Part shown: one piece after another, positions 58,860 through 59,632 of the stretch
Position numbering within the stretch: the first letter of the stretch is position 1
Layout: the number at the start of each line of letters is the position of its first letter
IMG/VR virus record: IMGVR_UViG_3300011979_000363
Coordinates: 1 to 64,000 of that record
Direction: 5' to 3' (one strand)
DNA from: a virus
Lineage: Duplodnaviria > Caudoviricetes
DNA length: 64,000 nucleotides
The notes under the pieces: generated by a model
Databases searched by the model: none
What the model was told of the DNA's origin: nothing
The model's input: only the letters and a program-made list of their open reading frames with translations
Translations under genes and position numbers: made by a program

Positions 58860-59632
58860 CTTGACAGAAAGCTGGGGAAAGATAGGAACTTCCAGGCGAT
58901 GCTTTCTGAGCCAATTAGCCCTACCCAGGTGTTATCCTGAGTAGGTTAAGCTCTTTGGGCATAATCTCCATAGAAGACTTCCCCGCGATACTGCCCATCA
59001 ACCATGTGACAGGCCTGCTTCCAGTATGATCGCTACGATCATCGACTCTGTTTGTCAAACTCACCAGAGTTAGTGAGGCATCGGAAAGTTGATTCCGCCA
59101 GACCACCTGCCTCACCTCACGCCAAGCTGTATCGCTTTGAGTGGCGTGAGCCATTAGCTGCTCATGTCTGGATCCCCTAAGCTCTCGGACGTAGTTGAGT
59201 GTCTTATGTGCTCATTACCGGCAACTACCTTAAAGCGCATTTCTGCGGTTGTGGGTGTCCTGCGTTGCGTGTCGTAGCCTTGGCTTCTACACCTTATCTG
59301 GCTCGTACACTTGTTAAGATCCGTAATCCCACCAGGATTTTTCGTCCATGACTGCTTTACCTATTTGTCAACGTCGTTGCTTTTTCCGGGTGCTTATTAT
59401 GCACCAAAGAATATGATCCATGACTTTCAGCTTTACAATGATTCGCCCAACCCAAGCAGTCGTAATGCTCATCAAGGACTTTTCATAAGGGGAAAAATAA
59501 AAACCACATTCAGCGCTGACAAGTTCCCTCTCAATTGTCGGCTGTCCTGAATGCGGTTTCTCTATATGTTTGTGCCTTTCGGCGAAGAGAATTCAGAATG
59601 GACACTCCGAGAGGGATACGTTGTGCCATCAT
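58860..59632 (-). ncRNA. Large hairpin-dense non-coding RNA candidate (~780 nt)
   Basis: At least 8 stems of 6-11 bp; sampled lines 43-58% GC versus 35% in a flanking line; no credible ORF; perfect promoter directly upstream. Confidence 0.6.

Follow-up and report, generated by a model that had tools for sequence, protein, structure and literature searches.

The stretch of DNA analysed here (hereinafter, the window) comprises positions 1 to 64,000 of an 88.8-kb provirus from IMG/VR. Towards its end, the plus strand carries a tape-measure gene of 2086 codons, with its last base at 57435, and, from 59750 onwards, a DUF6046 tail gene; both genes are intact, and the 2.3 kb between them hold two ORFs on the minus strand (57493-58164 and 58285-58683) and 1066 nt without any notable ORF (58684-59749). 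Given that the median gap between the tape-measure and DUF6046 genes is 142 nt in 59 more distant DUF6046 phages, the antisense unit that lies between the two genes in the window is, on this comparison, an insertion. The host of the phage is probably a member of Bacteroidales because related prophages that bear DUF6046 genes sit in genomes of Bacteroides, Porphyromonadaceae and Muribaculaceae (Lepagella, Sangeribacter) as well as in genomes labelled Prevotella. A plus-strand motif near GACTATT(A/T)(A/T)ATAA is found about 15-25 nt before the start codon of the DUF6046 gene (window 59715-59735) and recurs in all lineages discussed below (with equivalents in the loci L007, L009, L010, L016, L097, L099, L101 and L102); a possible role is that of a late promoter, or of a signal for translation, by which the expression of the tail genes resumes past the antisense insert. 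A supposed late-gene motif, AGACTATTWATAA, gave zero matches in the window in a pattern scan with one mismatch allowed, the window's own version being two bases off.

The preliminary description of this DNA, made from the single sequence, had interpreted 58860-59632 as a chain of stable hairpins, about 780 nt long and of no recognised class, that would be read from the minus strand and divided by a U-run near 59495, or alternatively as structured single-stranded DNA. So what kind of constraint, if any, acts on this stretch? All six frames of 58684-59749 contain 9-24 stop codons of mixed types, plus frame 0 of the non-coding stretch having rather few stops; the close homologues of the stretch differ by indels of 1-2 nt, which break the frame, and the substitutions among close relatives are distributed by position modulo 3 as 22/15/10, such that codon periodicity is not clear. 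The core (59000-59500) is 94-99% identical in close relatives, compared with 73% nucleotide identity in the adjoining spacer and 71% amino acid identity in the neighbouring protein. Because the identity of the core is high, the indels are present and the periodicity is not clear, the stretch is, as judged from its relatives, under constraint yet not coding. The G+C content is 0.42-0.53 across 58900-59600 versus about 0.33-0.40 in the flanks, and the predicted fold is only modestly more stable than those of shuffled sequences, with z = -2.66 for the minus strand and z = -1.05 for the plus strand (single sequence, 20 shuffles each). Folding energy by itself is weak evidence for a structured RNA; it is covariation that is decisive.

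Relatives of the region were reached through the homologues of both flanking proteins in a large protein collection and, from there, through the contigs encoding these homologues to the related phages. The non-coding region was matched by nhmmer in L005 and L006, which are identical to the window, in L007, L002 and L003, which are 89-98% identical, and furthermore in L101, L102, L097/L098, L016, L099/L100 and L009, the last of these being cut by a contig end. The homologues span at least seven phage lineages, with pairwise nucleotide identity within the RNA down to 53%, and the covariance model R1, which was built on an imperfect automatic structure, scores 102-143 bits in every homologue and nowhere else. 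Zero matches were obtained with blastn against the phage GenBank collection, in scans of IMG/VR for close relatives of the 132-aa and DUF6046 proteins, and in exact-word and motif scans with RNA segments of IMG/VR and of the GTDB genomes; the sole match in JGI metagenomes, L004, was revealed by alignment to be a chance 20-mer in a G+C-rich, apparently protein-coding stretch. Neither did nhmmer and R1 detect further members of the family in 80 IMG/VR loci from DUF6046 phages of greater distance, in 5 host genomes or in 151 sampled Bacteroidales genomes. The 59 phages used for the gap comparison above likewise lack the RNA by these searches. The known lineages are seven, all in one genomic context, and because the members are few, confined to this context and were found nowhere else, phylogenetic linkage is inseparable from functional linkage in this family.

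The structure was assessed on alignment A6, which includes 10 sequences in minus-strand orientation, with controls in which the partner of each base was slid by 1-3 columns. In the set of 93 pairs predicted by RNAalifold, 94.8% of the cells are paired (32-40% in the slid controls), 40 pairs show compensatory double changes (4-10 in the controls) and the covariation score is 0.354 (0.04-0.09). After three helices that are seen in lineage-specific folds were added by hand, and with the pseudoknot included, the set consists of 110 pairs in 19 helices, and the respective values are 92.4% (34-41%), 51 pairs (8-13) and 0.354 (0.05-0.09); with either set, the observed score was reached by 0 of 500 shuffles. 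All pair counts come from A6; when the A6 structure was moved to alignment A7, it scored worse in one helix, where the two alignments differ. By this covariation test, the region of the window is a genuine structured RNA in which base pairs are kept by compensating mutations. Because G-U exceeds A-C, its plus-strand equivalent, 87 to 13 among the predicted pairs, and a promoter on the minus strand is conserved as well, the predicted RNA is the minus strand. Thus, the chain of hairpins suggested by the preliminary description is a real non-coding structured RNA and the choice of the strand with the U-run was correct, whereas the structured single-stranded DNA offered as an alternative finds no support, considering the conservation of pairs and the strand-specific G-U bias.

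The body of this RNA, hereinafter type A, occupies about 620 nt of the minus strand (59477-58860, as delineated from A6, RNAalifold and the pair counts) and begins at the invariant CCUUGAUGAGC. It is predicted to contain at least 19 helices arranged in three regions, namely a 5' domain (59461-59350), a central region (59347-59173) and a 3' pseudoknotted region (59171-58920). In the pseudoknot (59073-59171, minus strand), the helix 59171-59166/59103-59098, in which 4 of the 6 pairs are compensatory and 100% of the cells are paired, crosses the helix 59115-59108/59080-59073, in which this is the case for 7 of the 8 pairs and 95.7% of the cells; the hairpins 59150-59116 and 59097-59082 are located within the span of the predicted pseudoknot, which is supported by covariation. 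The most conserved sub-domain (59232-59361, minus strand) consists of invariant unpaired runs around helices H5-H9, such as CGAAAAAUCC, AUUACGGAUCUU and CGCAGGACACC; together with CCUUGAUGAGC and GGCGAAUCAUUG, these are among the long invariant unpaired blocks between helices in both A6 and A7. With regard to the individual stems that had been picked out from the single sequence, those at 58920-58945, 59074-59114 and 59116-59150 and the hairpin at 59504-59556 are real and covary. The stems at 59026-59042 and 59045-59070 have counterparts in the form of hairpins at the same positions, with changed stem sequences, in both groups of lineages but are weaker (72.6% and 75.9% paired, respectively), and those at 58866-58907 and 58957-58996 are present in the lineage of the window but only partly conserved in distant lineages.

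Upstream of the body, the minus strand contains a predicted Bacteroidetes-type promoter (59639-59670), with the -33 element TTTG at 59670-59667 and the -7 box TAACTTTG at 59646-59639. The consensus for the Bacteroidetes sigma-A includes TTTG at -33 and TAnnTTTG at -7, 19-21 nt apart, and is matched by the window sequence AAAATTTG-N20-TAACTTTG. The pattern TTTG-N19-20-TAAnTTTG is present once upstream of the RNA in 11/11 loci examined; in each of these, there is one TAnnTTTG box, about 20 nt past AAAATTTG and 140-200 nt upstream of the invariant CCUUGAUGAGC. We infer from this arrangement that transcription starts near 59633-59631. The leader that follows (59492-59632, minus strand, about 140 nt, as defined from the sequence and the comparison of homologues) contains, in the window, a hairpin with a GAAA tetraloop at 59583-59574; a long hairpin follows at 59556-59504, and then a U-run at 59503-59493. 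The length of the leader is 130-195 nt across the homologues, and its sequence varies between lineages; a strong hairpin ends it in 11/11 loci, directly followed by a U-run of at least 5 U in 8-9 of the 11, and the arms of the hairpin stem, read by eye, covary between lineages. In the window lineage, CCCUCUC near 59613, at the 5' end of the leader, is able to pair with GAGAGGG in the hairpin loop, and in L003, L007 and L010 a change in one partner is matched by a change in the other. Located downstream of the promoter, the long hairpin and the U-run look like an intrinsic terminator or attenuator, termination itself being predicted. The split at the U-run near 59495 into a leader of about 140 nt and a body of about 640 nt, as originally envisaged, holds: the homologues have hairpins at this place, and the junction at which bodies are swapped (see below) lies about 20 nt beyond it. 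The GAAA hairpin at 59574-59583, which had been included in the chain, sits in the leader of the window's own lineage.

The RNA body is followed by an A+T-rich spacer (58684-58859 on the minus strand; 100-250 nt and variable across the loci), after which the first gene begins. Inspection of the sequence of the window spacer and a terminator scan yielded neither a terminator-like hairpin with a U-run nor a TAnnTTTG box. Given that no terminator follows the body, transcription would proceed past it into the small genes, and hence we infer that the body is co-transcribed with the downstream genes, in a single transcript with a terminator-like gate before the body. This lack of a terminator fits a giant 5' leader as well as a stand-alone RNA.

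The first of the downstream genes (58285-58656, minus strand) encodes a small basic protein of 123 aa if translated from ATG (132 aa from an upstream TTG), for which AlphaFold predicts a confident three-helix N-terminal domain and a disordered tail; the protein ends with the motif IIYTPMGGQPKRY (window 58285-58330). This protein family is very rare, with 4 cluster representatives among 1.84 billion. The antisense unit ends with a gene for a predicted membrane protein of 223 aa (57493-58164, minus strand), which is part of the variable cargo. Neither Pfam nor PHROG nor ESM-Atlas gave a lead on the downstream proteins, and a Foldseek comparison with the PDB returned no structural match for the three-helix N-domain. 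The tail peptides IIYTPMGGQPKRY, SIPMGGQNKRH and SIPFGGMNKRY belong to otherwise unrelated small basic proteins and conform to the motif [ST][IVT]P[MF]GG[QM][NP][KR][KRH][YH]-stop (window, L007, L003, L012, L015, L016, L097 and L099). The motif is conserved at the protein level, with synonymous codon variation, and proteins with such PMGG tails are encoded in 16/16 large-RNA loci for which downstream sequence is available and in 0/93 other loci. Past the stop codon of the basic-protein gene, the window (58181-58285) contains arrays of a 9-bp period whose units are based on CTATAGC/CTATGGC/CTATAA, and equivalent arrays are found just past the PMGG genes in L007, L003, L097, L099, L016 and L012; in L016 and L012, the next gene begins with these repeats, which there encode a lipoprotein signal peptide (MKTIITMKTIA...). 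The arrays may serve as binding sites or may be what is left of duplicated codons for signal peptides.

In some of the related phages, the slot holds another RNA. The promoter and the leader of L012-L014 and of L015 are as in the carriers of type A (the L015 leader is nearly the same as that of L097, and the L012 leader as that of L099) but the RNA body is different, the replacement starting about 20 nt after the U-run at a sharp junction. The alternative body, a candidate RNA that we denote type B, is about 900 nt long (L012:3527-5000 and L015:3704-5000, minus strand), with a G+C content of 0.45-0.65; L012 and L015 are 71-75% identical in this stretch and show 35 compensatory pairs versus 1-3 in slid controls. 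The type B stretch is not matched by the nhmmer profile, the R1 model or Rfam, and the bodies of type A and type B have no common word of 7 nt or longer. Thus, L099 (type A) and L012 (type B) have a common leader and basic proteins that are 85% identical together with unrelated RNA bodies. The genes behind the RNA also vary, the window encoding the basic and the membrane protein, L007 a lipoprotein-like and a basic protein, and L016 and L097 other sets. Comparison of L007:1805-3120 with window 57436-58870 is a case in point: the DUF6046 proteins are identical and the RNAs are 97.8% identical, whereas, in L007, a gene for a lipoprotein-like protein of 193 aa has been gained in the interval from the RNA to the basic-protein gene and the gene for the 223-aa membrane protein has been lost, which indicates, as far as these sequences go, rapid cargo turnover behind a fixed RNA. 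Because the RNA body is exchanged whole for another large RNA and is indifferent to the next gene, it appears to be a self-contained module.

Is the type A RNA a divergent member of an already described family? The Rfam 15 models, including those for ROOL, GOLLD, OLE, HEARO, raiA, RNase P, tmRNA, riboswitches, group I and group II introns and the hammerhead, gave 0 matches at the gathering score in the window and 8 homologous loci. In the window, at E<=10, there were only chance-level matches to TPP (E=3.6) and rli34 (E=6.5), neither of which is repeated in L016. The type A RNA is, by these model searches, outside every catalogued RNA family, in agreement with the first impression that it matched no recognised class. 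The core of a hammerhead consists of CUGANGA and GAAA around three stems. This candidate was rejected: CCUUGAUGAGC has a U in place of C3, L099 has an A at the essential G5, there is no stem II and Rfam reports no hit. The features found, namely a length of about 620 nt, 19 helices, 51 compensatory pairs, a pseudoknot, invariant single-stranded blocks, a prophage location and the absence of coding capacity, are those of the large ornate phage RNAs, and the 59477-58860 stretch of the minus strand is, on the present comparative evidence, the body of a previously uncatalogued family of such phage-encoded RNAs; it is a new RNA family within a known general kind.

The closest parallels are ROOL (RF03087, about 580 nt) and GOLLD (RF01998, >800 nt), which, similarly to type A, are large, ornate phage and prophage RNAs defined by covariation, with many conserved unpaired nucleotides and with neither a function nor a protein partner known; by cryo-EM, ROOL and GOLLD form RNA-only cages (10.1101/2024.12.08.627333). 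They differ from type A in that there is no match to their sequence or structure models and that they are usually found near tRNA islands, whereas type A is antisense within a tail module, has an attenuator-like leader in front of it and has protein genes behind it with no terminator in between. OLE (RF01071) resembles type A in being a highly structured RNA of about 600 nt and works with dedicated small proteins encoded nearby, but it is a chromosomal RNA of Firmicutes whereas type A comes from a phage, its model gives no match, and the proteins encoded next to type A have no family match. The prohead RNA of phi29 (RF00044) is likewise a phage-encoded structural RNA and acts as a multimer in the building of the virion, an example of an RNA component put to use in phage morphogenesis, but it is 174 nt long and shows no similarity, and it is only by its position in the tail module that type A is tied to assembly. 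As for the leader, terminator-based attenuators and riboswitch leaders share with it the promoter, the structured 5' region, the hairpin with a U-run and the upstream pairing segment; unlike in riboswitch leaders, there is no match to a known aptamer, the leader sequence varies by lineage, and the gated item is a 620-nt RNA and not a coding region alone.

The reading that, as a package, appears to best explain these observations, and to which we assign a probability of about 0.5, is that type A is an autonomous, trans-acting, folded RNA module gated by an attenuator. The host RNA polymerase would start at the Bacteroidetes-type promoter near 59633, and most transcripts would stop at the leader hairpin and U-run (59556-59493); read-through would yield the RNA body and then the downstream accessory genes, so that the leader, as an attenuator, would set the amount of the RNA that is made. 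The body would resemble ROOL, GOLLD and OLE in kind: as an RNA particle or scaffold, either compact or multimeric, it would take part in the phage-host relationship and would act in trans rather than as a regulator of one particular neighbouring gene. This autonomy is suggested by the fact that the same pair of leader and downstream protein occurs with a non-homologous RNA in sister phages, and by the fact that the immediately downstream gene differs among phages with a common RNA. The chief competitors of this reading are, first, that the fold is a giant cis-acting leader and, second, that the RNA forms a specific ribonucleoprotein with the PMGG-tail proteins.

If the 620-nt fold were a giant cis-acting 5' leader, it would have no role of its own but would control or protect the mRNA of the accessory genes, for which it could block Rho or exonucleases, sense a signal or determine how the first gene is translated. 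Such a role would naturally account for a unit that has one conserved promoter, always ends in protein genes and, from the body to the first gene, is devoid of a terminator and of a TAnnTTTG promoter. What makes us doubt this explanation is that the adjacent gene differs among phages with the same RNA (L007 vs the window, and likewise L016, L097 and L101), that a variable, A+T-rich spacer of 100-250 nt parts the body from the start codon, and that an unrelated RNA can take the place of the body next to a downstream gene that is still 85% identical. Furthermore, the cis-regulators that we are aware of are far smaller and simpler than the type A body. The swap is also awkward for the notion that the RNA is a scaffold or partner of the co-encoded basic proteins with PMGG tails: one family of basic proteins accompanies both type A and type B, which have no k-mer of 7 or more in common. 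The perfect association of these tails with the large-RNA loci (16/16 vs 0/93), the occurrence of one tail on several unrelated N-terminal domains, the conservation of the motif at the protein level and the strongly basic character of the proteins all speak for such a partnership, but the co-occurrence is confounded by common descent, and the small three-helix N-domain, for which there is no structural match, could equally bind DNA, the 9-bp arrays adjoining the gene. On balance, a dedicated ribonucleoprotein appears unlikely.

Two further explanations concern the nature of the sequence itself. A mobile ribozyme that homed into the leader, whether a group I-like intron in degenerate or atypical form or some other self-processing element, would explain how two different bodies come to be at one sharp junction with common flanks, and the strand order of the pseudoknot, 5'A - hairpin - 5'B - 3'A - hairpin - 3'B, is the P3/P7 order of group I cores (P3 - P4/6 - P7 - P3' - P8 - P7'). 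In group I introns, however, the base before the 5' splice site is a conserved U, J8/7 is conserved and 6-7 nt long, and P7 is bulged, with a guanosine pocket. In the type A RNA, the base that precedes the body junction is U, U, G, C, C and U in six lineages, with no fixed U; a single hairpin replaces the P4-P6 domain, 1 nt replaces J8/7, and the equivalent of P7 is a perfect 8-bp helix without the bulge. Moreover, the RNA is antisense and lies between two intact genes, no gene being interrupted, and there is no hit to Intron_gpI or any other ribozyme even at E<=10, so that a group I intron is rejected and a mobile ribozyme of any kind is very improbable. Even less credence can be given to the possibility that there is no RNA gene at all, with the stretch instead representing a protein gene that has decayed or been recoded, a site acting at the DNA level (an origin or a recombination site) or structured single-stranded DNA. 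The G+C content above that of the surroundings, as is the case for foreign DNA, and the rather few stops in plus frame 0 would be compatible with this possibility, but a recoded or decayed gene is ruled out by the mixed stops, of all three kinds, in every frame, the frame-breaking indels of 1-2 nt and the lack of clear periodicity; more generally, it is base pairs rather than codons that are conserved, the G-U bias is strand-specific, and covariation largely refutes the whole group of explanations. To our knowledge, there is also no obvious single-stranded stage for such a region in a tailed dsDNA phage.

An extension of the autonomous-module reading, which we consider tentative and rather expect not to hold in full, is that the slot between the tape-measure and DUF6046 genes holds interchangeable giant RNA effectors, that is, RNA machines or particles that a common attenuator would release and that would serve in conflicts between phage and host or between phages. 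Their roles would be, for example, immunity, anti-defence or the sequestration of host components, possibly with the PMGG-tail proteins docking on them. If this is the case, these units represent a new class of phage accessory ('moron') elements, with a large folded RNA rather than a protein as the payload. Among bacterial and phage RNAs, few are known that exceed 500 nt and have an elaborate conserved fold (ribosomal RNAs, RNase P, group I and group II introns, OLE, ROOL and GOLLD), and each of these proved to be a machine or an unexpected assembly. The new RNA family shows unusually clean covariation from few sequences, and its source phages are phages of Bacteroidales, which are abundant in gut communities. 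The layout is new as well: a host-type promoter, a terminator-like gate, an RNA and variable accessory genes, all in reverse orientation inside a tail operon. The second, unrelated RNA in the slot and the rare protein family with the common tail provide experimental handles on large phage RNAs.

A minor observation on the sequenced material pertains to the same slot. Three independent assemblies break within the region, as L002 ends at 59496, L008 starts at 59493 and L009 starts at 59227 (window coordinates), two of the three breaks falling exactly at the junction of the leader and the body. Such breaks would fit the coexistence, in one sample, of variants that have the same leader but different bodies.
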